This document shows positions 1 to 44,234 of a stretch of 44,234 nt of DNA, piece by piece. The translations under genes and the position numbers were made by a program. The notes under the pieces are model-generated. The model was not told the DNA's origin. It worked only from the letters and a program-made list of their open reading frames with translations, and did not search any database. The stretch lies in sequence record NC_047812.1; one strand, given 5' to 3'. Every line of letters starts with the position of its first letter. Within the stretch, counting starts at the first letter, position 1. Source of the stretch: Escherichia phage vB_EcoS_CEB_EC3a.

Positions 1-404
1 CTAAGCTGACACGTAACGCCTGTAGCGCGATGTAAGCCAATGCCTATCGTTACGCTAGTTACGCGAAGCTACGCCCAGACTTACACTATAAGTGCCTAAT
101 ATATATATATATCTTCTTTCTATTATTATTATTATTATTAATATTATTGTATGTAAGTCATGTAACAGGGGTCCTGGCGATATCTATATGTTTTTTCCTA
201 TCAGTTATAGCCGAGGCTATAATTTAGGGTATGGTGGGGGTGTTTTGGGGATGTTTGCATCGTTACACGCACGACACGCTACTCACATTGAGCTATAGCT
301 GGGCTGGCATGCCATTTCACGTAACGACCCCCAAAAGTTACCAAGAATTACACTTGACTACACGTGTAAGTCGGGATATTATGGACTCAACTTAAACGAG
401 AGGA
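1..404. repeat. Noncoding iteron/AT-rich module, copy A (paralog of 26380-26770)
   Basis: About 10 copies of ACGTAAC/GTTACG-type 7-9-mers in both orientations, a (TA)n plus (ATT)n tract at 99-150, and the 22-mer ACATTGAGCTATAGCTGGGCTG at 285-306, identical to 26677-26698. ORF 92..298 translates to low-complexity sequence. Confidence 0.8.
354..382 (+). promoter_or_regulatory. Strong sigma70-type early promoter (TTGACT-17 nt-TATTAT)
   Basis: TTGACT at 354-359, a 17-nt spacer, TATTAT at 377-382, followed by the AACGAGAGGAG leader and ATG at 414. Confidence 0.7.
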
Positions 405-4661: not shown

Positions 4662-4736
4662 GCTCTGCTAGCTCAACAGGACAGCAGCAACGACCTTCTA
4701 AGTCGTAGGTTACTGGTTCGAATCCAGTGCGGAGCG
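4662..4736 (+). tRNA. tRNA-Arg (anticodon UCU)
   Basis: Hand-folded cloverleaf. 7-bp acceptor GCTCTGC/GCGGAGC, anticodon stem ACGAC/GTCGT with loop CTTCTAA, T arm ACTGG-TTCGAAT-CCAGT, CCA encoded at 4737-4739. Confidence 0.85.
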
Positions 4737-4745
4737 CCAAATTAA

Positions 4746-4844
4746 CGTCGCGTTGCTAATGTTGGTTAAAGGGTGGAGCTTATACCTCCATAAAGCAATC
4801 TCCAGATAAGAGATGTAACGCAGGTTCGATTCCTGCCGCGACGA
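4746..4844 (+). tRNA. Aberrant 99-nt tRNA-like gene (possible Ile anticodon UAU or GAU; may be a pseudo-tRNA)
   Basis: Perfect 7-bp acceptor CGTCGCG/CGCGACG, canonical T arm GCAGG-TTCGATT-CCTGC, CCA encoded. The D region is poor, and two competing anticodon hairpins exist (TGGAG-CTTATAC-CTCCA and ATCTC-CAGATAA-GAGAT). Confidence 0.5.
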
Positions 4845-5156: not shown

Positions 5157-5663
5157 ATGAGCAAAGCAGCATTAAAGATGGGCGAGGGAAATTTCAAGGC
5201 GCTCTACAACAAGAAGTATGGCGATATTGCTATGGTGGCAATCAACCGCAAGTACACGCCGGAAGAGGTATTTGACTTTGCCGTTCGATACTTCTCCTGG
5301 GCTGAGAGTGAGGCAATCAAAGCCATTGAGACGGCGGCATTCCATGGAGTTGTCAGTGAAAACCTTGTACACAAGCCTAGGGTGTTCACATTAACCGGGC
5401 TGGCGCTATTTATGGGTGTTAACATCAATAGATTCGCTCGGTGGCGTACTGAGGCTGGGTACTCTGATGTGATGGAATTCATTGATAGCGTAATCTACGA
5501 GCAGAAATATCAGCTTGGCGTTGCGGGTATCATCAACTCCACAATCGTTGGTAAAGAACTTGGCATTGATAAGCCGCAGGAGATTACCATTAGCAACAAC
5601 TCAACAGCTAACGATGTTGACAGTATGAAGGAAGCTCTGGAATCTGTAATTAGCAAGCTATAA
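5157..5663 (+). CDS. terS: Terminase small subunit
   Basis: 168 aa immediately upstream of TerL. HTH-like segment FTLTGLALFMGVNINRFARWR, typical of small terminases. Confidence 0.75.
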   Translation: MSKAALKMGEGNFKALYNKKYGDIAMVAINRKYTPEEVFDFAVRYFSWAESEAIKAIETAAFHGVVSENLVHKPRVFTLTGLALFMGVNINRFARWRTEAGYSDVMEFIDSVIYEQKYQLGVAGIINSTIVGKELGIDKPQEITISNNSTANDVDSMKEALESVISKL

Positions 5664-5680: not shown

Positions 5681-7246
5681 ATGTCTTTAGTATGGGAAGA
5701 AATGACCATTCAGGAAAAGATGGCCGTTAAGGCGATATCAGAACACAGCTTCGAGGGTTTCCTTCGTTGCTGGTTCCAGATTACACAAGGCGAGCGATAC
5801 ATCCCTAACTGGCATCACAAGTACTTGTGCAGAATCATTGATGAGATTATCGCAGGAGATCGCAAGGACACCATCATTAACATAGCACCAGGCAGCGGAA
5901 AGACGGAAATTGCCTCAATCCACTTCCCGGCCTATTCGATGGTTAAGCTTAGGAAGGTGCGCAACCTTAACATCTCTTTTGCTGACTCCCTGGTTAAGCG
6001 TAACTCGAAGCGAGTACGTGACCTTATCAAGTCTCAAGAATTTCAGTCACTCTGGCCATGCAAATTTGGCACCTGCAAAGACGATGAGCTTCAGGTTCTT
6101 GATGAGAGTGGCAAGGTTAGATTTGAGTCAATATCAAAGGCGGCTGGAGGCCAGATTACTGGCGCTCGCGGTGGGTACATAACCGAAACATACAGCGGAG
6201 CCGTTCTTTTGGATGACTTTGACAAACCCGCAGATATGTTATCAGCAGTGTACCGCTCGAATAATCACGTAATGCTTAAAAATACGATTCGCTCACGTCG
6301 AGCCAGTTCTGTAAAAGGCAAAGCGACACCAATCATTTCGATACAGCAGCGGCTTCACGTCAATGACTCAACCTATTTCATGATGGAAGGCGGCATGGGT
6401 ATCGAATTCGATTTGATTAAGATACCAGCATTAGTTACTGAGGATTACCTAGACACACTACCTGAATGGATTAAAGAACAGTTTGAAGAGGATGTCCTTA
6501 GTAGTGAATACATAGAGCGCGATGGAGTAAGGTATTACAGCTACTTCCCTAAAAAGGAGTCAGTCAATGACTTGGTTGCGATGTGGGATAGTGACCCTTA
6601 CACCTTCCTTAGTCAGTATCAACAAGAACCAGTAGCTCTAGGTGGCAACCTTATTAACGTAGATTGGTTCCAGCGCCTTAGCGACACGTTCAGACCTCCA
6701 GCTAAGTACGATTATAGATTTATAACTTGCGATACAGCTATGACTACAAAAAGTTATAGTGACTTCTCTGTCCTTCAATTGTGGGGTTATAAAGATGCTA
6801 AGATTTACCTTATTGACCAGCGCAGGGGGAAATGGGAAGCGCCCGAGTTAGAGGCAGAGTTAATCGATTTCGAGAAGAAATCAAGGGCAACCAGTCAATC
6901 GGATGGTATCCTCCGAAAGATTATCATCGAGAAGAAAGCATCTGGAATCGGACTCATTCAATCAGCAAGTCGAGTCATGAGAACGCCAGTGGAACCTTAT
7001 GTTCCTGATAATGACAAGTTAACAAGGGTGATGAGTGCGCTGCCACAGATTAAGGCTGGTAACGTAGTTCTTCCTGAGTCTGCGCCGTGGTTAAGCGGAT
7101 TGCTTACTGAGATTGCGGCATTTACCGCTGACGACAGCCATAATCACGACGACCAAATTGATACCATGACAATGGCTATCAACCTGGTTCTGAACATTGC
7201 GGATGATCCTAAGTCGAGACTGATGCGCATAGCGGGAATGAAATAG
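5681..7246 (+). CDS. terL: Terminase large subunit
   Basis: 521 aa; Walker A PGSGKTE, Walker B-like VLLDDFDK, C-terminal nuclease-like acidic motifs (HDDQIDT). Position upstream of the portal gene. Confidence 0.9.
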   Translation: MSLVWEEMTIQEKMAVKAISEHSFEGFLRCWFQITQGERYIPNWHHKYLCRIIDEIIAGDRKDTIINIAPGSGKTEIASIHFPAYSMVKLRKVRNLNISFADSLVKRNSKRVRDLIKSQEFQSLWPCKFGTCKDDELQVLDESGKVRFESISKAAGGQITGARGGYITETYSGAVLLDDFDKPADMLSAVYRSNNHVMLKNTIRSRRASSVKGKATPIISIQQRLHVNDSTYFMMEGGMGIEFDLIKIPALVTEDYLDTLPEWIKEQFEEDVLSSEYIERDGVRYYSYFPKKESVNDLVAMWDSDPYTFLSQYQQEPVALGGNLINVDWFQRLSDTFRPPAKYDYRFITCDTAMTTKSYSDFSVLQLWGYKDAKIYLIDQRRGKWEAPELEAELIDFEKKSRATSQSDGILRKIIIEKKASGIGLIQSASRVMRTPVEPYVPDNDKLTRVMSALPQIKAGNVVLPESAPWLSGLLTEIAAFTADDSHNHDDQIDTMTMAINLVLNIADDPKSRLMRIAGMK

Positions 7247-23800: not shown

Positions 23801-24289
23801 AACGCCACATCGACTGGCGTACAGTACGGGATTAGCCTTGGCCTGAAATACAATGGGCAGACTTATTCATCCGGGATGAGCATGGAGCTTGTTGGCACCG
23901 GTGGGAATGTTCGCAGCCAGTTCATTTTTGATGCAAACAGATTCGCGATCAGTAACGGCATTGGCTCTGGTTCCGGTCAGTGGCAGCTCCCCTTCGTTGT
24001 CGAGAACGGAAACGTAATCATCCAGAGCGCAGTAATCGGTGATGGTTCAATCAGTAACGCGAAGATTGGTAACTTTATTCAGTCAAATAACTATGTGGCA
24101 GGAACTACAGGCTGGAGGATTGATAAATCAGGAAGTGCAGAGCTAAGCAACGCCACTGTAAGAGGTAATCTTTACGCTAACAATGGTAACTTCGCATTCA
24201 ACGGAACCAATAACACTGTTCAGATTAACAACAATGGAATTACGGTAAACTTACCGAACGGAGGTAGAGTTGTAGTTGGAGTGTGGTAA
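20864..24289 (+). CDS. Central tail fibre/host specificity protein, lambda gpJ-like
   Basis: 1141 aa, last gene of the M-L-K-I-J cluster. Contains FN3-like repeats and a coiled-coil region. Confidence 0.9.
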   Translation: MAQMIKTNMRLRDMAEEIKIYGAKGGSQKQHQPVEQEDNLISLNKVKVLLAVADGEVDSNFSMKDLYLADVPVQNQDGSYNYEGVRAEFRAGTQYQEYIAGLDGANSEIQASREITNDTPYIIAVNNTQLSAIRIKLFWPRLVKQESNGDLNGITCEYAIDLSVNGGAYQEYTRGVANGKTTTGYDRSIRVNLPAEFDSALVRIRKITADSTSSTLVNGMQITTYQEVIDAKFRYPLTALVYVEFGSDLFPNGIPTISIKKRWKLIQVPTNYDPETRTYSGTWNGLFKMAWSNNPAWVLYDLVTNRRYGLDQRELGVEIDKWGLYEAAQFCDQMVPDGKGGMEPRYLCDMVVQNKVEAYTLIRDICSIFRGLTFYDGEKIGIVVDKPRNPSYIFTNDNVVNGLFSRTFASDKSLYTTANVQFDDVENNYQQDVEPVFELEATRRFGFNPVDLTAIGCTRRSEANRRGRWLLKTNLRSETISFTTGLEGMIPMIGEVIAVNDAAWSSNYQLNLSGRIESVQGLQVFTPFKVDAAPGDRILLNKPDGSPEARTIASVSEDGRTINLNTAFSFVAQPDTVFAIDKDNLALQQYVVTGIQKADSDGSDSFQYTITAVEYDPNKYDEIDYGVNIVDRPTSIVEPDRLSPPENLTVSSYSKVVQGLSVETMVIGWDKAPYAKTYNVQWRKENGNWINVPRTASTEVDIEGIYAGIYDVRVRSVSDTENVSAWSDIVTVSLTGKIGRPSAPTVITASNDEVFGIRVKWGFPDGSGDTAYTELQQVADNGDGTYNPDNASLLTLLPYPAYEYWHTPIQPGKVIWYRARLIDRIGNTSDWSNFSRGMSTDDANIINDYIKVDIEGSEGFKYLEQNAIQKNQDIQNQAESILENALANDTDVRRMTKENGKRKAEYVQAVNLIADETQARVEALTQLKAQIDDEVVASITEVQTALATETEARTTSDTQLSARIGDNEAALNQKLDAFANATSTGVQYGISLGLKYNGQTYSSGMSMELVGTGGNVRSQFIFDANRFAISNGIGSGSGQWQLPFVVENGNVIIQSAVIGDGSISNAKIGNFIQSNNYVAGTTGWRIDKSGSAELSNATVRGNLYANNGNFAFNGTNNTVQINNNGITVNLPNGGRVVVGVW

Positions 24290-24295
24290 ATGATT

Positions 24296-24318
24296 AGGCC
24301 CCTTTCGGGGCCTTTTCT
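24296..24318. terminator. Bidirectional intrinsic terminator
   Basis: AGGCCCC-tttc-GGGGCCT with T-runs, between convergent gpJ and RBP genes. Confidence 0.75.
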
Positions 24319-25563: not shown

Positions 25564-25606
25564 ATAGTATCGAATCCTTGCGATCAGTGTTTAGCAATTA
25601 GTGCTA
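25564..25606 (-). promoter_or_regulatory. Dyad-promoter module (minus strand) driving lipoprotein and RBP
   Basis: Core 25592-25606, 22-nt spacer, TACTAT (plus-strand ATAGTA 25564-25569), leader TACCACATCGAAACGAAAC. Confidence 0.65.
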
Positions 25607-26251
25607 TTTCTTTTCGAGTAACATCTTGATGTCAATGCCGAGATTATTTTCAATCAATCCAGTCAGTGCATCCGTCTTTTCTTTAAGGGCAAAACACTGA
25701 GCTTCATACTTAAATCTTTCCTCCATCTCGTCAGAGCGACTAACCCAGCACTGGCGAGCCTCGCAAGCCAGCATGTCGAGTTTTTCATCGGTATTCTTAT
25801 CCATGAGTAAGATCTCATTTATTCTTTGCTCTGCAACAATGCGCTGACTAAGGTGTGCATTTTGCGCATTAGCCACACCAAGCATCATTCGCACTTCTTT
25901 TAACTCATCAATGCTTACCATCTGGCTGATTACTTCTTCTTGTTTTTTAACTAATTGCTCAAGCTCATGAAGTCGACGGATAACTTTGTGTCGAAGCACG
26001 ACGCTGTAGCCAGTGATTAGCGTTTCGGTGAGTTCCTTGTTGAGTAAAATCTCAGATGTATAGCCTCGATTGTCTGTAAGTAGTTGATAATCATAATGAC
26101 CCAAATCTGGGGCATCGTTATAATGTAACAATTCATTGATCATTTCCTTTGTGTCGCGAACGACGTGATCATGACGTTTCCCGGTTAACTCTGCGATTTC
26201 CTTTGTGCTCATCATGGTTTTTGGTTGTTCTTTGTACAATTCAATGTTCAT
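25604..26251 (-). CDS. Rha-family phage regulatory protein
   Basis: N-terminus MSTKEIAELTGKRHDHVVRDTKEMI matches the Rha signature. ATG 26251 is preferred because SD AAGAGAG lies 6 nt upstream. Stop TAG is in the next module. Confidence 0.7.
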   Translation of the reverse strand: MNIELYKEQPKTMMSTKEIAELTGKRHDHVVRDTKEMINELLHYNDAPDLGHYDYQLLTDNRGYTSEILLNKELTETLITGYSVVLRHKVIRRLHELEQLVKKQEEVISQMVSIDELKEVRMMLGVANAQNAHLSQRIVAEQRINEILLMDKNTDEKLDMLACEARQCWVSRSDEMEERFKYEAQCFALKEKTDALTGLIENNLGIDIKMLLEKK

Positions 26252-26322: not shown

Positions 26323-26365
26323 AATATAACTAAAGATAGTCAGTTGTCTTTAGCAATTAGTGCTA
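26323..26365 (-). promoter_or_regulatory. Dyad-promoter module (minus strand) driving rha
   Basis: Core 26351-26365, 22-nt spacer, TATATT (plus-strand AATATA 26323-26328). Confidence 0.6.
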
Positions 26366-26379
26366 TTTATCGCCAATTT

Positions 26380-26770
26380 CACCATAAATCACGGTTACAC
26401 GTAACCGATGTAACTCTATGTATACAATATCATCCGCGGAAAATGATATACGCGCTGTTACGCCAATTTACGCATTGGTTACATTAAAATATCTATATAT
26501 ATCAACCTTTTACTCTTATTATTATTATTATATATATTACTGTGTATATCATGTAACTACTTCTATAGAGTGTTCCGGTTATAATTTTAATATCATGTGG
26601 ATTTATACAGTATTGCGTGGCAACTATACCAACGCACCCTCAGCCAGGAATGGTATACACGATATACACGACGGTTACATTGAGCTATAGCTGGGCTGAG
26701 GTGCCCAAAAACGTAACGAGAGCTAATACCTACACGGAATTACGAGGATTCACACGTAACTTTAAGTCAA
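26380..26770. repeat. Noncoding iteron/AT-rich module, copy B (paralog of 1-404)
   Basis: Colinear blocks with copy A: ACACGTAAC, (TA)n, (ATT)n, TCATGTAAC, TATAAT, the 22-mer ACATTGAGCTATAGCTGGGCTG (26677-26698), then ACGTAACGA and CACACGTAAC. ORFs 26418..26690 and 26149..26487 are low-complexity artefacts. Confidence 0.8.
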
Positions 26771-26772
26771 CG

Positions 26773-26816
26773 ATTGGCAAAACCAATTGGACTTGTTGCG
26801 ATGCCGAATATATAGT
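26773..26816 (+). promoter_or_regulatory. Variant dyad-promoter (ATTGGCAAAACCAAT-23 nt-TATAGT) for the recombination operon
   Basis: A different 5-N5-5 palindrome (26773-26787) occupies the position of the TAGCA dyad. TATAGT 26811-26816, leader TACCTCATCGAAAGC. Confidence 0.55.
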
Positions 26817-26853
26817 TACCTCATCGAAAGCAAGCAACCAGAGAGATATAGAA

Positions 26854-27048
26854 ATGACCTACTACATTATCAAAGAGAAAAACAATGCACTGTTCGGCGA
26901 CTGCTACTTTGGCGGGCCTGCTGGATACACCACAGATAAGAATGAGGCAGACCGATTCGATACCAAAGAAGAAGCCAGAGATGTTCTGACCGGGTACTTC
27001 ACTGAGGAAGATTTGAAGTCTGTTAAAGTGGTTAAGGTCAAGGGGTAA
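26854..27048 (+). CDS. Hypothetical protein (64 aa)
   Basis: ATG 26854 follows AGAGAGATATAGAA. The longer ORF 26617..27048 runs through the promoter and iterons. Confidence 0.65.
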   Translation: MTYYIIKEKNNALFGDCYFGGPAGYTTDKNEADRFDTKEEARDVLTGYFTEEDLKSVKVVKVKG

Positions 27049-27051
27049 GTT

Positions 27052-28017
27052 ATGAGCTTTACTGTTTACACACGAGAAGAACTATCAAACTCTGAGTACC
27101 ACTCTGAGACTGATCACATCTCCGGTAGCTCGCTTGTCGAGATTATCCATGGTTCGCCAGCTAAGTGGAAATTCAAACAGCGCAATAATGATAGTAAGGC
27201 TCTTAAATTTGGCACGCTGTCACATACTTACATCCTAGAAGGTGACATGTTTGATAAAGAATTCCTTCGAGCCACAGACCTTGACGCGATTGAAGGCTTA
27301 ATTACAAGCCAGACCGGATTATCGGCAGCGCTGAAAAAAGTTGGCGTTGCTGGCACGTCTGGGAAGGGCTATAGCGAACTTGTAGAGATGATGTATCGCT
27401 CCGGTGAGGATTGGCCTGTTAAGTGGCTAATTGAACAGCAGGAGAGTGCTCAGGCGCTTGTGGAGGGTAGGGAGCTAGTTAGCGCGGCAGACTATGACAA
27501 AGTGGTGGCGATGCGTGAGGTTCTTTGTAATATTCCAGCATATAATGCAATAGTGAACAGCGAGACAGCGCAGAAAGAGCTATCAATCTTTGGTGAGATT
27601 CTCGGCGTCGGCGTGAAGATTCGAATTGACCACGTTGATGTTGTTGATGGTGTGGTGTGTATTACCGATCTGAAAACGACAGCCAGCGCATCACCTCAGG
27701 AGTTTGGGAGACTTGCATTCAAGCATGGGTATCTTGCAAAAATGGCTCTACAGCACGATGTTTTTGTTATGGCTTTTAATGAAAAAAGAAAAACAAAAGT
27801 AAGGCTACTTGCAATCGAGAAAGAGGAGCCTTACCTACCAATGCTTTACAACATTACAGAAGAGCAACTGAAGGTTGGTCGCAGAATGTATTTAGAGGCG
27901 CTTGCCACTTACAAAAAGTGCAAAGAGAATGATGTGTGGCCCGGTTATGCAATGGGCGCAACAGAGATCGACCTAGATGTTCCTGAGTGGGATATGAGGA
28001 AGTATAAAGAAATTTAA
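27052..28017 (+). CDS. PD-(D/E)XK (RecE/RecB-like) recombination exonuclease
   Basis: 321 aa with IRIDHVD...ITDLKTT (D...D-x-K) nuclease core. Directly upstream of an ERF annealase. Confidence 0.7.
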   Translation: MSFTVYTREELSNSEYHSETDHISGSSLVEIIHGSPAKWKFKQRNNDSKALKFGTLSHTYILEGDMFDKEFLRATDLDAIEGLITSQTGLSAALKKVGVAGTSGKGYSELVEMMYRSGEDWPVKWLIEQQESAQALVEGRELVSAADYDKVVAMREVLCNIPAYNAIVNSETAQKELSIFGEILGVGVKIRIDHVDVVDGVVCITDLKTTASASPQEFGRLAFKHGYLAKMALQHDVFVMAFNEKRKTKVRLLAIEKEEPYLPMLYNITEEQLKVGRRMYLEALATYKKCKENDVWPGYAMGATEIDLDVPEWDMRKYKEI

Positions 28018-28090: not shown

Positions 28091-28741
28091 ATGCAAATTT
28101 CAGAATCATGCAAATCAATTTTAAACGCGCTACACACTGCCAAGTCGCTATTTGCGAAGGCTGAAAAGTCGAAGCAGAACTCGCACCTAAAGAACAGATA
28201 CAGTACTCTTGATGATGTTCTTGCTGCTGTGGAGCCTGGCCTTGAAGAATGTGGTCTTGTAATGTTTCAGAGCGTAATTGATAGCGAAGATACTGGACTA
28301 TTAAAGGTTGAGACAAAGTTATTCCATGCGGAGTCAGGTGAGTGGGTTAGCTTCTTAATGATTGTCCCAATCAGCAAGAATGACGCTCAAGGTTACGGAT
28401 CAGCATTAACATACGCTCGACGTTACGGAATCACAGCGGCATTAGGACTTAGCCAGGCAGATGATGATGGAAATCTTGCAGCGAAGGGTGTTAAGGACTT
28501 TAAGCGAGAACTTGAGAAGTGCAATACTCTTGATGAGCTTCGCAATGTCTGGAAAGATGCTAAGCAATCACTTGATGCGGCAGGATGGAAGGTCTTTGAA
28601 CCTCATATTATCGAGCGCAAAGCAGAGATAGAGGCTAATGCAGCAACTGGCTTCAACCCGGCAACACCAAAGAAAGTTGCAGAAAAAAGTAGTCCTGAAG
28701 AAAAGATTGAAGTAGAATCACAACAAATCGACACATTCTAA
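28091..28741 (+). CDS. erf: ERF-family single-strand annealing protein
   Basis: NRYSTLDDVLAAVEP...GYGSALTYARRYGITAALGL is characteristic of the ERF family. Confidence 0.75.
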   Translation: MQISESCKSILNALHTAKSLFAKAEKSKQNSHLKNRYSTLDDVLAAVEPGLEECGLVMFQSVIDSEDTGLLKVETKLFHAESGEWVSFLMIVPISKNDAQGYGSALTYARRYGITAALGLSQADDDGNLAAKGVKDFKRELEKCNTLDELRNVWKDAKQSLDAAGWKVFEPHIIERKAEIEANAATGFNPATPKKVAEKSSPEEKIEVESQQIDTF

Positions 28742-28785
28742 ATTTTACGGGGCTACGGCACCAAACCAACAGAGAGATATAAAAC

Positions 28786-29217
28786 ATGCACGTAATTACT
28801 GGTCAGATTCGACGCGCTCCATTCACTAAGGAAGGTCAGAATGCTAATGGTACCTGGAAAATGTTCGCGGTTGATTTGAGTGAGCGATACAAAGATAAAG
28901 ATGGTCAGACTCAGTATAATAACTATCGCGCCGTCTTTTTCGCTAAAGAGTCAATGCTAGATTGGTACAATGAGGCATTTCAAGAGGGTAAAGTTGTTAG
29001 CGTTAGCGCTGAAAGTTTATCTGTAGATGTTCGTGACAAAGATGGTAAAACATACGTAACCATTAATATGAATAATCCACGACTTGAGTTTAGCCAGCGT
29101 GGCGATGGTGGTGGTCAACAACGGCAACAGCAGCGTCATCAGCCACAACAACCACAGCAACAGCAACAGCAACAACCGAAGCAGCAACAGAACTTCGAAG
29201 ATGATATTCCTTTCTAA
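28786..29217 (+). CDS. ssb: Single-stranded DNA-binding protein
   Basis: OB-fold-sized N-terminal domain, Gln/Pro-rich linker, canonical acidic tip FEDDIPF at the C-terminus. Confidence 0.85.
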   Translation: MHVITGQIRRAPFTKEGQNANGTWKMFAVDLSERYKDKDGQTQYNNYRAVFFAKESMLDWYNEAFQEGKVVSVSAESLSVDVRDKDGKTYVTINMNNPRLEFSQRGDGGGQQRQQQRHQPQQPQQQQQQQPKQQQNFEDDIPF

Positions 29218-29222
29218 AGAAA

Positions 29223-29246
29223 AGGCCCCTTTCGGGGCCTTTTTTA
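29223..29246. terminator. Bidirectional intrinsic terminator
   Basis: AGGCCCC-tttc-GGGGCCT followed by T6, between convergent ssb and fibre genes. Confidence 0.8.
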
Positions 29247-32054
29247 TGAAGCTGTATTTACCTGAAGATATGCACCATTAGTTGCACCAAACCATGCGTA
29301 AGCAGATCCGTAAGTTGTTGGGTTATCATTTAAGATGAAGTCACCCGCTCTAATTACGCACTTTTCTCCATATTTATCAGTTGGCCTTGCACTAAAACCA
29401 TAATCAACATATCTAAAACCAACCTTCGTTACGTTCTTGTTAAGAGGAAAAATCCTTAAGAAGCTAGAAGCCCTAAAGTCATTATTCCTGAAAATTCCTC
29501 CTGTAAAGTTATCCATATCAAACATTGTGGTTAAACTTGAAGCAACAGTATTCATGAACTTGTTGCCTTCATATGTCGGAGCTACTACTTCATAGCCAAC
29601 TCTTAGCTGAACAAATCCTCCATCAAGAATATTGTCCTTAATTGTTGGGTACTGACCGCCGATTGATAACGCCCCAAAGCCAGGTGTAAATTTGCAACTA
29701 TTATTACTAAATATAGTACCAACCCAACCCTGATTTGTAATATATGGCGCTTTCGTGTCTGTCATGGTGTTTCCGGTGATAATCAATCCATTCTTAGCCT
29801 GGACTCCCTCCTGGTAGCCCTGAATCGCTACTCCACCACCAATCATAATGTTATCAGCGATAAGAATATTACTTAGACCTTCGTTAACACCCCAATCACT
29901 TTCTGAATCATTTGTTATCAGTAAGTAGTGAGAAGAAGCCCTGCCAGTAGCGTCTGTAGTTATGATGCTTGTATTCCCTTTGCATATAACATTGTTTGCC
30001 GCAAAAACCTCAACAAATATACCAGAGCCTTCGTAGTAGTTATCAGTAACCGTTATGTTATTGCCAGCAGGCGTTATACGTGACTGGATAGATATTGGAT
30101 AATAGAACTTGTTGGCGTGAGCATAAGACCTTTTGCTTTTTTCGGATATTGCATAATCCTCCGCGAAAGTGTGCCATGCCCTTCCTGACTGTTTTGTTGT
30201 GTTTCCGATAAACTCTGAGTAGTCACAGTTTCTTGTGAGTAAGCAGTAGTTAGCGTTGTATCTGAAGTTTGAATCTCTAAGAGATACGAATGCATTAGAC
30301 AAACCATTAAGAGCATCGGCATTAACAAAGGCCCTCGAGGCATTAACCTCCATACGCTCAATCAAAACTGATGCGCATCCTTCAACCATAAATCCAAACC
30401 AGTCTTCTCTTGGTTTATGCGTTGTATCTAATGGTTGGATTGAGTAATCTGAAAAGTCACTATTCCAGTTGAGGCCGCTAGCTTTAAGTGTGCAATTCTT
30501 TGCGCCGAAAACAACCCTCTCAGGTGATGAACTTCCAGATATATCGATCTCAACATCATTATTGGCAAAAATATCAACATTAAGGCCATTAATGAAGAAT
30601 GCCGTCTTCCTTAATACGTTGTACTTATCATTGTACTGAATATCAGTGGAGAATGAGACTTTCAGTCTTCCAGCGCTAATTCTTACCTTCCTGTTTGTAT
30701 TGTGACCAAGGTTTATACATGCCATAACCGAGGCGTTTGATTCATTAACTCCAGACACATCATGACCAGCCCATTCGGTATGGATATCATCAACACCTCC
30801 CGTAAACCTAACCCAGCAACCATTTTCACCTGGTGATGTCTCACCCGCTCCGCTAAGGAAGTCTGAAAGCGTGGAATATGTACCATCAAATGGAACCGTT
30901 GGGCTAAAAACAGTAATCCCGTTATGTTCGCTCTTACTTACTAATGGACTCCAGTAGAACAGACCGCCACCAGAGTTTGATCCAGAAATGTAAGACCTTA
31001 CATTTGCTAAATTTTTATTCTCATTTGTTTGTTTGATTAGTTCGTAAATTGAATCAACTGAAGATAGTCCTAAATTACTCCTGGCAAGGCTTTTATCCGC
31101 AACATCAGAGAAATTCAATGATTTTTGAAAAGTCTCATTTTTTGAGTAAACATCAAGTAAACCTCTTACTCGCTGGGCGTTAGCGCCTCCAGCTTCATTT
31201 CCGCCAGGCAAGTAGATTGACTCTCTAACATAGTAATTCCTAACACCACCGGAAGTATTGTAACTGATGTGATAACGTCTAAAGTTGCCATCGATACCGG
31301 TGTAGGTTGACACTTGAATATTTCTTGATCCAGTCCCAGTTGCTCCGCCCTCTACAGATATAACAAGCGTAGCATTGCTTGGTACTTTTAATGCTTCTGG
31401 TGCATTTGTGCAAGCAGAGAAAGCAACCCTATAATGACCGCCAACAACAAAATTAAAAGTTTGGAAATCAAGTTCACTTAAAATATTGCTACCATTACCG
31501 ATACCCCAACCAGAAAGTGTAACTAGTGTTCCAGCATCACCAGCACTATTAATTGCCTCAATAGTAGCATCTCTCGCTGATGTGGTTGTATCTCTTGCAC
31601 TAACGGCAGTAGCTGCGCTCTCTGCGGCAGCAATCTGGCTAGCTAAAGCATCCGCTGCTCCTTGCACTGACTGGCTTGCCAATTGCTCAAAGCGAGGCCA
31701 ATCAAAAGAATCCTGACCAATGAAATCAATCAGGCTCTGAATGCTAGTTTCCCTACTCTGATAATAACGAAGTGTCTCCGCTACATTTTGAGCTAAACCC
31801 TGAACACTAATACCATCATGTGCAAGGATTGCATAACCAGTGCCAGCGGGAACGGTTTCACCATTAGGGTTGTATACAGCCATTGATGTGTCGCTGGTGA
31901 TTTCAGAGATAGTGTAAATCTGTACTGGCTCCGTTTTAAACACTAAAGTAGCACCAACGCGAATAAGTGTTAGTGGCATGGTCCATTGAGTGCCAACTCC
32001 AGTAACCTGACCGTTCGCTGCTAAACTGGCAGTGCCAGTATCATAAATTGCCAT
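29244..32054 (-). CDS. Lateral tail fibre/tailspike with beta-helix (depolymerase-like) domain
   Basis: Start MAIYDTGTASLAANGQVTGVGTQW (ATG 32054, SD GGAG). Conserved fibre-anchor N-terminus, then Asn/Gly-rich repeats typical of right-handed beta-helix spikes. Confidence 0.75.
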   Translation of the reverse strand: MAIYDTGTASLAANGQVTGVGTQWTMPLTLIRVGATLVFKTEPVQIYTISEITSDTSMAVYNPNGETVPAGTGYAILAHDGISVQGLAQNVAETLRYYQSRETSIQSLIDFIGQDSFDWPRFEQLASQSVQGAADALASQIAAAESAATAVSARDTTTSARDATIEAINSAGDAGTLVTLSGWGIGNGSNILSELDFQTFNFVVGGHYRVAFSACTNAPEALKVPSNATLVISVEGGATGTGSRNIQVSTYTGIDGNFRRYHISYNTSGGVRNYYVRESIYLPGGNEAGGANAQRVRGLLDVYSKNETFQKSLNFSDVADKSLARSNLGLSSVDSIYELIKQTNENKNLANVRSYISGSNSGGGLFYWSPLVSKSEHNGITVFSPTVPFDGTYSTLSDFLSGAGETSPGENGCWVRFTGGVDDIHTEWAGHDVSGVNESNASVMACINLGHNTNRKVRISAGRLKVSFSTDIQYNDKYNVLRKTAFFINGLNVDIFANNDVEIDISGSSSPERVVFGAKNCTLKASGLNWNSDFSDYSIQPLDTTHKPREDWFGFMVEGCASVLIERMEVNASRAFVNADALNGLSNAFVSLRDSNFRYNANYCLLTRNCDYSEFIGNTTKQSGRAWHTFAEDYAISEKSKRSYAHANKFYYPISIQSRITPAGNNITVTDNYYEGSGIFVEVFAANNVICKGNTSIITTDATGRASSHYLLITNDSESDWGVNEGLSNILIADNIMIGGGVAIQGYQEGVQAKNGLIITGNTMTDTKAPYITNQGWVGTIFSNNSCKFTPGFGALSIGGQYPTIKDNILDGGFVQLRVGYEVVAPTYEGNKFMNTVASSLTTMFDMDNFTGGIFRNNDFRASSFLRIFPLNKNVTKVGFRYVDYGFSARPTDKYGEKCVIRAGDFILNDNPTTYGSAYAWFGATNGAYLQVNTAS

Positions 32055-32120: not shown

Positions 32121-32143
32121 AAAAAAACCTCCCGAAGGAGGTT
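32121..32143 (-). terminator. Intrinsic terminator after primase
   Basis: Minus strand: AACCTCC-ttcg-GGAGGTT followed by T7. Confidence 0.8.
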
Positions 32144-33065
32144 AGTCTAGTAATTCGCTTGCTTTGTATATTCGCTTTCTTATGCCTGACTTGAAAAAAT
32201 TATCATCATTTGGCATTACCACATCAAGATTGCGATCGTCAGCAACAGCGAGTAAATCAAAATCGTGGCGAGTACAAGCGACGCGTAACTTGTAGTTTCT
32301 AAGCGCATAAGCAACCATTTCCATGTTGTAGCTGGAGTGGCAAACAAGCACACAGCGGTTGCCAGTAGCAATGTGAACGCGATAGCCGTCAATGAGATTA
32401 TCGACCAGATAAGCGTACTCATCATCTTTAAAGGCGCCAATAATAGAAACAGACTGGCGAGTATAATCTTTTGCAGCATAGCTAACATCTCCATCTTCAT
32501 TGATAAACATTACATTGCACATATCATCTGATATGCCGTCACTATAAGCCATAAAGCACGGTACTGCGTGTATTAGTTCGCCTGATTTAGTCCTGCCAAC
32601 ATCAAAACCAAATTCGCTATAGATACCCTCGTATATACTGAGCGGTGTTGATTCTACTCTTTCCGTCCTTTCCATTATCTCAAGGCATCTTTCGTGGTCA
32701 ATCTGCGCGCCCATTTTATAAAGCTTAGTTCTTGATGCTTGCTTGTTTGCCTTAACTATAACCTCAATTGGTGTTAAGTTCAGCCAGTCACCAAGCAAAT
32801 TCACTGAATCGGCGAAGGACGATCCAGTGCACTTCATGACCCATCCTATACCTGAGTCACTTCCGCATTTCGAACAAACTGCCGCGCCATTTCCTTTTTC
32901 ACTGCCTATTTCGTCGGTAAATCTGAATCTGTCAGTGCCAAGGCAGTATGGGCATGGTCCGTGCTTCTTACTTAGGTGTCTATCATTCCAACCAAGTTCC
33001 TTTGCATAAAATAATTTCCACAATCCGGCCATCTTAGGTATAACTTCATTCTTATCGTAATTCAT
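32142..33065 (-). CDS. DNA primase (Zn-ribbon + Toprim-like)
   Basis: CPYCLGTDRFRF...CSKCG zinc ribbon of the P4/T7-type primase N-terminus. The acidic Toprim-like segment is C-terminal. Confidence 0.7.
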   Translation of the reverse strand: MNYDKNEVIPKMAGLWKLFYAKELGWNDRHLSKKHGPCPYCLGTDRFRFTDEIGSEKGNGAAVCSKCGSDSGIGWVMKCTGSSFADSVNLLGDWLNLTPIEVIVKANKQASRTKLYKMGAQIDHERCLEIMERTERVESTPLSIYEGIYSEFGFDVGRTKSGELIHAVPCFMAYSDGISDDMCNVMFINEDGDVSYAAKDYTRQSVSIIGAFKDDEYAYLVDNLIDGYRVHIATGNRCVLVCHSSYNMEMVAYALRNYKLRVACTRHDFDLLAVADDRNLDVVMPNDDNFFKSGIRKRIYKASELLD

Positions 33066-33593: not shown

Positions 33594-34067
33594 TTACTCT
33601 TTAGCTTTTCGTGCGGCTTCGTTAGCTGCCTTGATCTTTCGCCATGAGCGACACTCTGGTTTAGTTGCTAGCTCAGCCTCAGTAACAACACGCAGCATAT
33701 GACGCTTCTTGCAACGTAGAGTTAGCGGTTTCCCGTTACCGTCGAATTGCAGATCTGGTCGGCAGAATGTAGCGCGAAAACCTTCTCCATTTCGCTTATA
33801 GTAGTTGTGCGACAGCTGGGCGCCGCGCGCAGAAATCATCCCACGCTTAAACCATTCTTCTACAGCCTGAGGTGTCACCTTTAACTGCTTTGCGATATTT
33901 GCCTTTGTGCCGAAGAAATCAAGAACAATCTCCAACCGTGCGCGCAACCCAGCCCTTACCTCGTCTTTTAAAACGTAGTAGCCTGAAGGTCGTTTCCGTT
34001 GTTTTTTGTCTTCAGTACGAATGGTTCCGTTGTTCCCGTTAATTGTTCGCTTGTCTACTGCATTCAT
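33594..34067 (-). CDS. Putative HTH DNA-binding protein (157 aa)
   Basis: HTH-like segment NIAKQLKVTPQAVEEWFKRGMIS; basic termini. Confidence 0.55.
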   Translation of the reverse strand: MNAVDKRTINGNNGTIRTEDKKQRKRPSGYYVLKDEVRAGLRARLEIVLDFFGTKANIAKQLKVTPQAVEEWFKRGMISARGAQLSHNYYKRNGEGFRATFCRPDLQFDGNGKPLTLRCKKRHMLRVVTEAELATKPECRSWRKIKAANEAARKAKE

Positions 34068-36857: not shown

Positions 36858-37078
36858 TGGAAATTTTTAAGTTTGAAGAGCAGTGGGATTATTTCAAAGC
36901 TATGGCTGTACAGGAACTGCATAAGTCAGGATACAAGGGAGACAAATGGTTTTTAGCTGACTGCCTAGACATGAGTTTTGAGGAAGACTACTTAAACACC
37001 GATATCGAAACATGGCGCGACCGCATGGTTGCTGATATCGAAGAAATGAAGAAAGATTGCCCAGAGGATTTTGAATAA
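36857..37078 (+). CDS. Hypothetical acidic protein (73 aa)
   Basis: ORF track; TAATG coupling. Confidence 0.65.
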   Translation: MEIFKFEEQWDYFKAMAVQELHKSGYKGDKWFLADCLDMSFEEDYLNTDIETWRDRMVADIEEMKKDCPEDFE

Positions 37079-40728: not shown

Positions 40729-42312
40729 TTACCCCAGCAGTCTAGGATTAATGTAAACTTTATCACCAATCAGGCACGTGTAGTTTTTCTCATCAAGCAT
40801 TGGCAGCAAGTGATCTTTAATCTTCGTCATTACTCCAGCCTGAGCCTCGAATGGCTTAACCTTACGAGCCGCTTCATACAATGAACGAATGCCAACTACG
40901 CCCTTACCGTTCTTACCTTGCTTGATCAGAATATCAATCAGCTTATTCATCTCGGCATTGTCGCCAGCGTGACCAGCGGCGTTAGCAGATGACAAATAAG
41001 TCTTGCTAAGTTCCTGGAACATAATTACAGCCTCTTGCATGGTTTCGAGTTCAATCTCTCTGGACTTCTGCGGACTCCCGCCATTTGGGTTAAACCAGTT
41101 ACGCACAGTGTGAAGGACCGCTGCAATCCTGATAGCCTGCTTATCAAACTTACCAAGCGCACCGCGAAGCATTGTGTGAGAATACTTACCGCCGTCAGCG
41201 AGGTGAGGCTCCATTTCCTGACGTGCTCGGTTGAGGTACTTCATCGCTGAGTTGCTTACTGTCAGCTTAACATCTTGCTCATTCATTATTTCGTGAACCA
41301 AGCGGAAGTAGTCAGCCTTCAGGCCACCATCAATAGGTTCGTAAGTTGAGTCTCCATTCTCATCAACGAATACACGTTCGCCGAGGAATGACTTCTCGCG
41401 CACAAGAAGGAAACGTTCCGATACACCGATACCACGCGCGCCAGCATTCATGATTGCATTGATTGTTTCATCCTGCGCAATTACAGAGATGCAACCCATA
41501 GCAACGAAACTCATGTTGTTTTCTGCGTTCGCACGCGCGATAGACACGTTACCCGCATCCCATGCTTTCAGTACAAGTTCGCTGTTCGTTTTCTTGGATC
41601 CGTCACCGTAGGTCATGCCAAGCAGCGAGTTCACGCTCGTCGCCTCATCCGAGATGACTGCGAAGTTGCCCTGGCGGTTGTTGATTCGAGCAAGGCCTTC
41701 AGGCGTGGTATCTGATACTGGGAATACGATATCGCACAACTTCTCCAGCTTTTCTTCCAGCTCCTCTTTCTCCTCAAAAAGTGAAGCCATCTCTGACGGG
41801 GATTTTTCCTGCTTCATCTCTTTCGATAATGTAGATAGCTTAGCCATAATCTTTTTGCGCTCACGCTTGCGCACTTCATTAAGTCGCTCAGTCTCAGTAA
41901 TCATTGGAGCAATCGAAAGTGAGTTAATGGCCGACTTACCAGTTGATGGCGGTTGGCTTGTCACGACGTAAAGAGATGTTGGCTGTTGGGTGCCATGATA
42001 CTCGACAGTAAAGCGTCCAAGCATTGCGGCAGAAATACACCCAAGGAAGTGCATATAAGCTGAAGACTCTGGAAACTGAACTGAACGAGCGATGTTAGAT
42101 GACAATTTACCAACAACATCAATATCATTTCCTAGTGAGATTACGGGGTATTTGTCATTTGCAGCATCAATCTCCACTGGTGCTTTCCAGAATGATTGAG
42201 ACTGGCGATAGCCATTGGCATTAATGGCGACTCGCAGTGGCGGGAGGTTGTCTGCGGCAGCAATTGCCATAACCTGTTCAACAGATAGTTTATCTTCGTT
42301 GAAATCAAACAT
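40729..42312 (-). CDS. Walker A/B ATPase, DUF3987-like putative replicative helicase/initiator
   Basis: 527 aa. Walker A SQPPSTGKSA, Walker B FAVISDEATS. Overall resemblance to DUF3987/primase-associated helicases, judged by eye. Confidence 0.65.
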   Translation of the reverse strand: MFDFNEDKLSVEQVMAIAAADNLPPLRVAINANGYRQSQSFWKAPVEIDAANDKYPVISLGNDIDVVGKLSSNIARSVQFPESSAYMHFLGCISAAMLGRFTVEYHGTQQPTSLYVVTSQPPSTGKSAINSLSIAPMITETERLNEVRKRERKKIMAKLSTLSKEMKQEKSPSEMASLFEEKEELEEKLEKLCDIVFPVSDTTPEGLARINNRQGNFAVISDEATSVNSLLGMTYGDGSKKTNSELVLKAWDAGNVSIARANAENNMSFVAMGCISVIAQDETINAIMNAGARGIGVSERFLLVREKSFLGERVFVDENGDSTYEPIDGGLKADYFRLVHEIMNEQDVKLTVSNSAMKYLNRARQEMEPHLADGGKYSHTMLRGALGKFDKQAIRIAAVLHTVRNWFNPNGGSPQKSREIELETMQEAVIMFQELSKTYLSSANAAGHAGDNAEMNKLIDILIKQGKNGKGVVGIRSLYEAARKVKPFEAQAGVMTKIKDHLLPMLDEKNYTCLIGDKVYINPRLLG

Positions 42313-44048: not shown

Positions 44049-44234
44049 TTCGTTAGATTTATTGATTGTTGCATATATTGCAATGATTATCATGACTATT
44101 GCACATATGGCAATATTGCTTCAGATGCAATGATGTTTTTGATTGTTGCGAAAAGTGAAATGAAGTTGGGAGTGAGTGAATGAAAGATGGATGGACTACC
44201 ATACAAGTTGATTTTGATTCCCGCTGAGCCATTT
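44049..44234. repeat. Noncoding cluster of short AT-rich palindromes and TTGATTGTTGC direct repeats
   Basis: ATTGCAAT, ATGATtATCAT and GCAATATTGC palindromes, TTGATTGTTGC twice, and five TTGCA/TGCAA elements. No credible ORF. Confidence 0.6.

Follow-up and report, generated by a model that had tools for sequence, protein, structure and literature searches.

The window analysed here, 44,234 bp in length, is the complete genome of Escherichia phage vB_EcoS_CEB_EC3a, a T1-like siphophage (Drexlerviridae, Braunvirinae-type). At 26385-26775 it carries a repeat-rich stretch built around an AT-rich core, which we call module B, and at its left end (9-372) lies a paralogue, module A. A sequence-only reading had placed module B between the leftward rha promoter and the rightward recombination operon, and both flanks were found as claimed: to the left is a Rha-family gene with a 21-nucleotide (nt) promoter-associated repeat at 26346-68, and to the right are a promoter, a 64-amino-acid (aa) open reading frame (ORF) and the genes for exonuclease VIII, ERF and SSB. 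Over the module B region, the window is 86-93% identical to Escherichia phages IME253, TR3, Rao1, ZL19 and AugustePiccard and to the Veterinaerplatzvirus group. We defined the anatomy of module B by phylogenetic footprinting across 16 orthologues, including those from Rogunavirinae and Guelphvirus; its parts and borders are as follows.

26346..26368 (- strand): 21-nt T1-family promoter-associated repeat AAATAGCACTAATTGCTAAAGAC, left boundary of module B
26393..26447 (+): left arm; head-to-head GTTACAC and ACGTAAC, then ATGTAAC and ATGTATAC, in 9-10-bp steps
26448..26484 (+): phased repeat array; aTACGC, tTACGC, tTACGC, tTACAT with an exact 10-bp period
26485..26549: AT-rich core, candidate DNA unwinding element; (TA)n, (TTA)n and a consensus for integration host factor (IHF), TATCAACCTTTTA, at 26500-26512
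26550..26557 (-): right-flank repeat CATGTAAC, directly right of the AT-rich core
26572..26612 (+): TATAAT-containing block GGTTATAATTTTAATATCATGTGGATTTATACAGTAT, with TATAAT at 26580-85; conserved in Braunvirinae
26610-26654: variable spacer
26654..26760 (+): auxiliary repeat cluster, with variable spacers between the repeats
26773..26816 (+): rightward sigma-70-type promoter of the recombination operon, TGGACT-17-TATAGT at 26788-26816; flanks module B but lies outside it
26854-27048: 64-aa ORF (phrog_5247), a real gene downstream of module B

Anatomy and non-coding status of module B

The module opens with GGTTAC-AC-GTAACC (26393-26406), whose 6-nt arms are perfect inverted repeats around a central AC that is not self-complementary. 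The palindrome noted earlier is thus present in the window, but its left arm is unconserved, with GTATAC or ATATAC replacing GGTTAC in many relatives, and the invariant core of this region among relatives is TACrCGTAACCGATGTAAC. Repeats in the left arm run in the order > < < plus GTATAC, and the arm ends in a conserved spacer containing CCGCGG. All four units of the phased array that follows point right, toward the AT-rich core. The right-flank repeat CATGTAAC is inverted relative to this array, so the repeats converge on the core. The other motifs that had been listed for the module are all present: GTTACGCC (from 26457/8), ATTTACGC, GGTTACAT (26477-84), ACGTAACGA (26711-19) and CACACGTAAC (26751-60).

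Comparing short blocks with inter-block sequence in relatives had been proposed as a check on the module. In the phased array, repeat columns are near-invariant and spacers vary (mean column entropy 0.03 vs 0.88; Mann-Whitney p = 6e-6). The accompanying proposal, that selection acts on the short blocks, was borne out in this array and in the right half of the module, where the conserved islands are TTAC-core motifs plus a 22-mer common with module A; but the left arm (26393-26447, entropy 0.23) and the core (26485-26549, entropy 0.22) are conserved as long continuous blocks. Together, the ~170 bp from 26393 to 26560 have an entropy of 0.22-0.39, compared with 0.90 for the neighbouring promoter and 5' untranslated region, and are better kept across subfamilies. 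This distal part is kept even in Rogunavirinae and Guelphvirus, despite a diverged promoter-proximal half.

To the right of the core, the block GGTTATAATTTTAATATCATGTGGATTTATACAGTAT is not conserved in Rogue1 or ACG-M12, and a sigma-70 scan found no usable -35 element, and no convincing promoter, for the TATAAT at 26580. The auxiliary cluster contains two copies of ATACAC and one of GTTACAT (26654-26680), the 22-mer ACATTGAGCTATAGCTGGGCTG (26677-26698), ACGTAAC (26711-17), CTACAC, ATTAC and a second ACGTAAC (26754-60). Both the 22-mer and TATAAT recur in module A (at 285-306 and 218-223, respectively), and the distance between them is indeed greater in B than in A; the true gaps are 91 nt in B and 61 nt in A, so the earlier values of 92 and 62 were off by one.

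The repeat family is concentrated in the two modules. GTTACRY occurs 41 times in the genome, counting both strands, and 15 of these copies fall in the 771 bp of A and B, where 0.46 would be expected, a density 33-fold over the genome rate; B has nine exact and ~4 degenerate sites, and A has six. GTAAC/GTTAC occurs 16 times in the modules (1.9 expected, p ~3e-10) and ACACG ten times (0.48 expected), and enrichment of ACACG and TACACG in the modules is 20-40-fold.

The AT-rich ORFs called over module B had been judged noncoding, and our comparison bears this out. Across 18 aligned orthologous regions, the sites that vary in the frame of ORF 26418..26690 are spread 31/34/34 over the three codon positions, and the homologous ORF is interrupted by stops or by indels of 1 or 2 nt in ES, IME542, p111, Rogue1, AHP24 and ACG-M12. 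Given the absence of codon-position bias and the broken frames, we conclude that module B is non-coding, and we rejected the coding hypothesis. A more general version, in which the region encodes either a small protein from the AT-rich ORFs or a structured RNA or leader starting from the TATAAT at 26580, is highly improbable. It would fit with ORFs 26418..26690 and 26617..27048 being open in several close relatives and annotated as coding sequences (CDSs) in some records, with the longer call underlying phrog_35664, and with the conservation of the TATAAT block in Braunvirinae. However, the 26418..26690 frame is flat in codon position and is lost in more distant relatives, the translation is low-complexity and runs to poly-Tyr/Ile, and the TATAAT is without a usable -35. 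An Rfam search gave no match in module B, only tRNAs elsewhere in the genome, and RNAalifold detected no conserved structure in the right half of B: its prediction (11 sequences; -9.9 kcal/mol over 200 nt) has a covariation term of +0.28, which argues against the fold. In practice, the public-record CDS annotations over this region, namely the 26418..26690 ORF and the 143-aa extension (26617-27048) of the 64-aa gene, are spurious and have spread in databases (for example in PP069512.1); phrog_35664 is based on the 143-aa call and is built on over-long annotations.

A paired module at the packaging end of T1-like genomes

Module B had been described as a diverged second copy of module A with indels, and the two copies do align colinearly and in the same orientation (9-372 with 26397-26768). 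The alignment score is 144, compared with 28.1±3.7 and a maximum of 41 for shuffled sequences (n=200), and the order and orientation of the repeats are identical between the copies. In both, only one or two repeats lie immediately right of the core. The features of the A side are these.

9..372 (+): module A, paralogue of B; AT-rich core at 97-156, 22-mer at 285-306
11-17 (-), 49-55 (+), 58-64 (+), 160-166 (-), 262-268 (+), 319-325 (-): repeats of module A
354-382: promoter after module A, TTGACT-17-TATTAT
414-893: DUF7174 gene
44134..44234 (+): stretch found only at the copy-A site, with GATTG/GATGG repeats, just left of module A

We then computed duplex stability from nearest-neighbour free energies (dG) in 60-bp windows across the genome. 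The two least stable sites are the cores of A (z = 5.7) and B (z = 5.3), followed by a third site at z = 3.6. The IHF consensus has only two matches genome-wide, one of them inside the core of B.

A total of 132 phage records have module B at this position upstream of the exonuclease/ERF/SSB operon; BLAST detects module A in only 26. Two genomes without A by this measure, 12397V and Msk, nevertheless have a second module with the same core and repeats 17-19 kb away. A second paralogous copy is present at the packaging end in every whole genome checked, namely those of the window, Msk, 12397V, T1 (modules at ~120-540 and 29900-30340), TLS (5' region and 28715-29100) and a Klebsiella phage, PV893054.1 (~8985 and ~41619). 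The two-copy layout is family-wide, which goes beyond what the sequence-only reading had described. In the Klebsiella phage, A and B are inverted relative to each other, and B and the exonuclease/ERF operon are flipped together with respect to the small terminase gene (TerS) and the helicase gene.

Within a genome the two modules resemble each other well above chance (scores of 123 in T1, 145 in TLS and 188 in the Klebsiella phage, vs ~30-37±5 for shuffles), and the two paralogues within one genome resemble each other more than orthologues do across subfamilies, comparisons between the window and T1 scoring 56-98. The repeat itself differs by lineage, being GTTACRY in the window, rTTACr and GATTAACAC in T1, GTGAACA in TLS and ATCTTAC in the Klebsiella phage, and the layout is constant. 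Repeats flank the core and point inward in all eight modules that were drawn out (A and B each from the window, Msk, 12397V and T1), and by inspection they also converge on the core in the Klebsiella phage. The window, T1, Msk, 12397V and the Klebsiella phage all have the two cores as their least stable 60-bp windows, at z 4.5-5.8, with third place at or below 3.8. Lineage-specific repeats, a constant layout and paralogues more similar than orthologues form the pattern expected from co-evolution with a phage protein that is sequence-specific, with occasional copy-to-copy conversion perhaps adding to the similarity.

Outside these phages, the module had no match in E. coli chromosomes or plasmids or in any plasmid record. 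A 20-mer from the core gave scattered matches in bacterial genomes, roughly as many as chance would yield, as well as one contig of phage size, and IMG/VR held few loci beyond those of GenBank phages. The sole plasmid match for the phage helicase, CP124687, is a 49.6-kb T1-like genome.

Also new relative to the earlier description is that copy A probably adjoins the packaging cut. Phage MSK has a single forward PhageTerm terminus at 36,862 (PMC8421802), which aligns as GGACTA/CCATAC (cut at the slash) to window position ~44199, ~35 nt left of position 1 and ~128 nt left of the A core. The start of the SU57 record was chosen from PhageTerm (PMC7718038), and the record starts of SU57, Rao1, ZL19 and the window are all within ~45 bp of the MSK-equivalent terminus. 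In T1, the annotated terminal repeat starts ~215 nt left of the A core. Because published termini and record starts cluster here, we place copy A next to the probable pac cut. The MSK terminus maps inside 44134-44234, where GATTG/GATGG counts are above the genome-wide rate, with none left of B. This stretch, ~4.8 kb upstream of the TerS gene, is highly conserved among the window, 12397V and Msk although their A modules diverge. Since it is conserved where A differs and has no counterpart at B, we take it, rather than the shared module, as the probable true pac site. Just to its left, at 44069-44130, are three operator-like palindromes, TTGCA-N5-TGCAA at 44069 and 44116 and an imperfect copy at ~44097, which are present too in the first 60 nt of the T1 record; they may be an operator for the Cro-like regulator or part of pac.

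Candidate origins of replication and competing explanations

We read the modules as cis-acting protein-binding DNA elements, and most likely as phage replication origins. In favour of an origin are an anatomy typical of one, with phased repeats that point toward an AT-rich core, the extreme duplex instability of both cores, the cross-subfamily conservation of the ~170-bp stretch, the lineage-specific repeats and the precedent of two such sites in phage SPP1. The term iteron, under which the repeats had been introduced, implies a role in replication; this is plausible, and it is made more so by a phage protein predicted to be MCM-like with a winged helix. We estimate a probability of about 0.5 that the two modules form a pair of replication origins, or that one is an origin and the other an auxiliary site bound by the initiator.

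The candidate partner is the DUF3987 protein (40729..42312, - strand). AlphaFold2 with a 24-sequence alignment gave a model with a predicted local distance difference test (pLDDT) score of 89 and a predicted template modelling (pTM) score of 0.86; a single-sequence model (pLDDT 37) was not used. When this model was compared with the PDB using Foldseek, the top 49 matches were MCM subunits; a sequence search of the PDB gave no match. For the DUF3987 'helicase' the prediction is an AAA+ protein of MCM-like type that carries a winged helix at its C-terminus (residues ~450-527). Its likely partner is the primase (32142..33065, - strand), which has a zinc ribbon of the primase-helicase type (Pfam PF08273, phrog_510). 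Among phages with common GTTACRY repeats the winged helix is 97-100% identical. Where the repeats differ, it diverges faster than the AAA+ core (identities of 59% vs 78% in TLS, 38% vs 72% in the Klebsiella phage and 49% vs 60% in T1), which is suggestive but confounded by phylogeny. Comparing the window, T1 and TLS by whole-protein identity of their proteins for replication and recombination was uninformative for picking a repeat binder; only the domain-level comparison of the helicase gave a signal, a weak one. Among the proteins scanned there was no family match to a gp38-type origin-binding protein or to a DnaB-type helicase and loader, although no dedicated search was made.

From these observations we infer how the modules might work, from the identity of the binding protein to the division of labour between A and B. 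A phage-encoded sequence-specific protein would bind the convergent GTTACRY repeats around the AT-rich core, and the strongest candidate for this is the MCM-like DUF3987 helicase through its C-terminal winged helix. Contacts along a single face of the DNA helix, as the 10-bp phasing would allow, would melt the core, the least stable DNA in the genome, possibly assisted in B by IHF bending inside the core. The helicase would then load itself, one ring per side of the core, the separate phage primase would prime, and the host polymerase III replisome would take over. A and B might relate to each other like oriL and oriR of phage SPP1, as alternative origins or as one origin and one fork-stalling site to which initiator is bound; forks stalled there would be passed to the products of the neighbouring exonuclease/ERF/SSB recombination genes, which would generate the concatemers that are packaged. 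A bolder and more specific version, which we regard as unlikely to hold in full, is that the two paralogous origins are opened by a self-loading MCM-like helicase whose winged helix reads lineage-specific 5-7-nt repeats, as a bacterial-virus counterpart of double-hexamer MCM loading, that one fires while the other, initiator-bound, stalls the fork for exonuclease/ERF/SSB-dependent concatemer synthesis, and that A also couples replication to the packaging site.

Several points weigh against an origin function. The IHF site is in B, with none in the window's copy A. Neither module is directly downstream of the helicase gene, A being ~2 kb beyond its 5' end and B ~14 kb away. The covariation between winged helix and repeats is seen in few lineages and tracks the phylogeny, and rapid evolution is common in C-terminal domains anyway. 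There is no DnaA box (TTWTNCACA) anywhere in the genome, and no GATC in either module where 1 would be expected. Module A also adjoins the packaging cut zone. Finally, each module is immediately upstream of one of the few promoters without the 21-nt repeat (354-382 and 26788-26816), so a purely transcriptional role fits their positions equally well.

That transcriptional role is the main rival to the origin reading, and we consider it rather unlikely. The repeats would be operators for a phage regulator, such as the Cro-like helix-turn-helix (HTH) protein (33594-34067) or Rha, that switches the activator-independent rightward promoters at 354-382 and 26788-26816 together with the divergent leftward ones, and the AT-rich core would be an upstream supercoil-sensitive or IHF-bent enhancer. 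Such an early control region would account for the location of both modules between divergent promoters, for the good sigma-70 promoter that follows each of them without the 21-nt repeat found at at least 15 other units, for repeats reaching to ~30 bp from the -35 elements, for the IHF consensus in B and for the Klebsiella phage, where B keeps its orientation to the exonuclease/ERF operon though the operon is inverted with respect to A. It fits these positions but not the gradient of conservation or the extreme instability. The most conserved part of the module (left arm, array and core; entropy 0.22 vs 0.90 for the promoter) is 240-400 bp upstream of the promoter, Rogue1 and ACG-M12 keep the distal core with a diverged promoter-proximal half, and being the two least stable genome sites in five phages would be unusual for operators. 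Protein binding could instead serve a site that does not initiate replication, such as a programmed replication-fork barrier, a recombination hotspot feeding exonuclease, ERF and SSB, or a point of attachment to the nucleoid or membrane. This reading shares its evidence for protein binding with the origin, B is always directly upstream of the recombination operon, and oriR of SPP1 has been proposed to be a fork barrier (PMC6316719). We think this quite improbable, as it explains the extreme duplex instability and the convergent repeats less well than an origin does, although sequence alone does not separate the two.

A packaging role, with the modules as pac recognition or packaging-enhancer sites whose repeats are bound by the small terminase, is less probable still. 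Phased short repeats flank a central region in the pac sites of P1 and SPP1, which the modules recall. The position of A, whose start is ~35 nt right of the MSK-equivalent terminus in the zone where the SU57, Rao1, ZL19 and window records start and whose core, in T1, is ~215 nt right of the beginning of the terminal repeat, also suits this idea, and ATATA repeats were once put forward as a feature of T1 pac (as relayed second-hand in PMC8421802). However, B has the same architecture and no reported terminus, the MSK PhageTerm analysis having given one forward terminus; the stretch at 44134-44234, found only at the A site, is the better pac candidate; and B is far better conserved than A (132 vs 26 records), the opposite of what would be expected for a packaging end.

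Two well-known origin types were tried and set aside. A DnaA-dependent, oriC-like origin was rejected since there are no DnaA boxes and no GATC cluster, which excludes only the oriC-like type, and a lambda-type origin, with iterons inside the initiator gene, was rejected because both modules are intergenic and non-coding. Cumulative GC skew tracks gene orientation and gave no origin signal.

Relation to known systems and to the rest of the genome

The layout has close parallels in staphylococcal islands. Rep of the Staphylococcus aureus pathogenicity islands (SaPIs) and Cch of the staphylococcal cassette chromosome mec (SCCmec) are self-loading initiator-helicases whose C-terminal winged helix reads 6-12 penta- or hexanucleotide iterons; these iterons flank an AT-rich region in opposite orientation, and a separate primase works with the helicase (PMC9371898). 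Like the origins of SaPIs and of SCCmec, the modules consist of many 5-7-nt repeats split by an AT-rich centre and set in opposite orientations, and the phage encodes a predicted hexameric MCM-like AAA+ helicase with a C-terminal winged helix (fold matches 5dgk, 7ola and 8tch) as well as a separate primase. Unlike them, the modules belong to a virulent Gram-negative siphophage rather than a staphylococcal island, occur as two paralogous copies per genome and are longer (~380 bp), with an auxiliary repeat cluster; unlike the SaPI origin, they are not immediately downstream of the helicase gene.

A second parallel is SPP1, a 44-kb lytic pac-type siphophage in which oriL and oriR are two similar sites, each with direct repeats plus an unwinding element that is AT-rich, ~13 kb apart, and in which oriR is proposed to stall forks and hand over to a 5'-3' exonuclease, an annealing protein, SSB and a junction nuclease (PMC6316719). 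The window likewise has two repeat-plus-unwinding-element sites, and it resembles SPP1 in that AT-rich islands are the strongest compositional outliers of the genome and that a recombination set made up of a 5'-3' exonuclease, a single-strand annealing protein, SSB and a junction nuclease goes with them. However, the SPP1 initiator gp38 and its DnaB-type helicase and loader are unrelated to the MCM-like protein here, oriL is inside the initiator gene while both modules are intergenic, and oriL and oriR have no sequence similarity to the modules.

The T1 primase is annotated as similar to P4-type alpha proteins. In satellite phage P4, ori and crr are two separated cis sites with the same octamer repeats, to which a primase-helicase binds through its C-terminal domain. 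The P4 alpha protein is one superfamily 3 (SF3) primase-helicase polypeptide, and crr consists of paired 120-bp direct repeats without an unwinding element of its own; in the window, by contrast, both copies have the full repeat-core-repeat layout.

The only repeat family previously described in T1-like genomes is the 21-nt intergenic repeat, aaATAGCACnnnTTGnTAAAA, reported for TLS (PMC11447400), one copy of which borders module B (26346-68). It differs from the modules in sequence and in number (at least 15 copies vs 2), and it is oriented with transcription, ~76 nt upstream of start codons, rather than being centred on an AT-rich core. The TLS paper, from 2024, found no iterons and does not mention modules A and B (PMC11447400), and in SU57 a replication origin was not found (PMC7718038); by these two accounts, no origin has been identified so far in this phage family. 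In the literature that was searched, which left the T1 and Rtp genome papers outside it, we found no description of the paired modules or of an MCM-like DUF3987 protein, and "T1-like" together with "iterons" returned the TLS paper only. The layout itself is a known type of architecture.

T1 is one of the seven classic T phages, and Drexlerviridae are among the commonest coliphages and Klebsiella phages, familiar as laboratory contaminants, members of the BASEL collection and candidates for therapy. Our analysis supplies two defined candidate sites (~170-380 bp), a repeat consensus for each lineage and a candidate initiator, and these make the long-open question of the T1 origin directly testable. 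The MCM-like prediction for DUF3987, if correct, would also tie a virulent enterobacterial phage to the self-loading helicase systems of SaPI and SCCmec.

The gene order of the window is that of T1. Small early genes come first, and the remaining landmarks are as follows.

5157-5663: TerS, P22 gp3-like
5681-7246: large terminase subunit (TerL)
up to 24289: structural genes, then a leftward lipoprotein/Rha block
25604-26251 (leftward): Rha-family gene
27052-28017: exonuclease VIII
28091-28741: ERF
28786-29217: SSB
beyond SSB: tail fibre, primase, Cro-like regulator (HTH, 33594-34067), superfamily 2 (SF2) helicase, VRR-NUC, lysis genes, DUF3987 helicase (40729-42312, -) and leftward small genes
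1409, 2366, 3086, 3261, 3828, 7241, 28016, 36579 (+) and 25587, 26346, 43199, 44029 (-): examples of 21-nt repeat sites

At at least 15 sites in the window, the 21-nt-family repeat AAATAGCACnAATTGCTAAA is followed ~22 nt on by TATAGTTACCACATCGAAACGA. A 22-nt gap is too long, so TTGCTA cannot act as a -35 element. The promoters next to A and B, that of the recombination operon included, are without the 21-nt repeat that precedes most other transcription units, which suggests a split between early, repeat-less promoters next to A and B and activator-dependent promoters that bear the repeat. An inverted repeat, ATTGG-N5-CCAAT (26773-26787), overlaps the -35 of the B-side promoter, its arms conserved and its loop variable in relatives, and a perfect palindrome, TACACGTGTA (359-368), lies inside the spacer of the promoter after module A; both look like operators.

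Some public labels also look doubtful. PP134917.1, 'Pseudomonas phage PsgS01F', is 99.5% identical to the window over module A, and this record, MG065688.1 ('Campylobacter phage A110b') and CP124687.1 (a Paraclostridium 'plasmid') are T1-like coliphage-type genomes, so that their host or replicon labels are open to question.

Near-identical GC hairpins, AGGCCCCTTTCGGGGCCTTTT, stand at 24289-24316 and 29216-29243, the two convergent junctions between gene blocks, and are probably bidirectional terminators. Finally, directly after tRNA-Arg(TCT) (4662-4739), Rfam gave a second tRNA-like match at 4746-4844 (41 bits, 99 nt) that ARAGORN did not call and that may be a tRNA with a long variable arm or a degenerate one.

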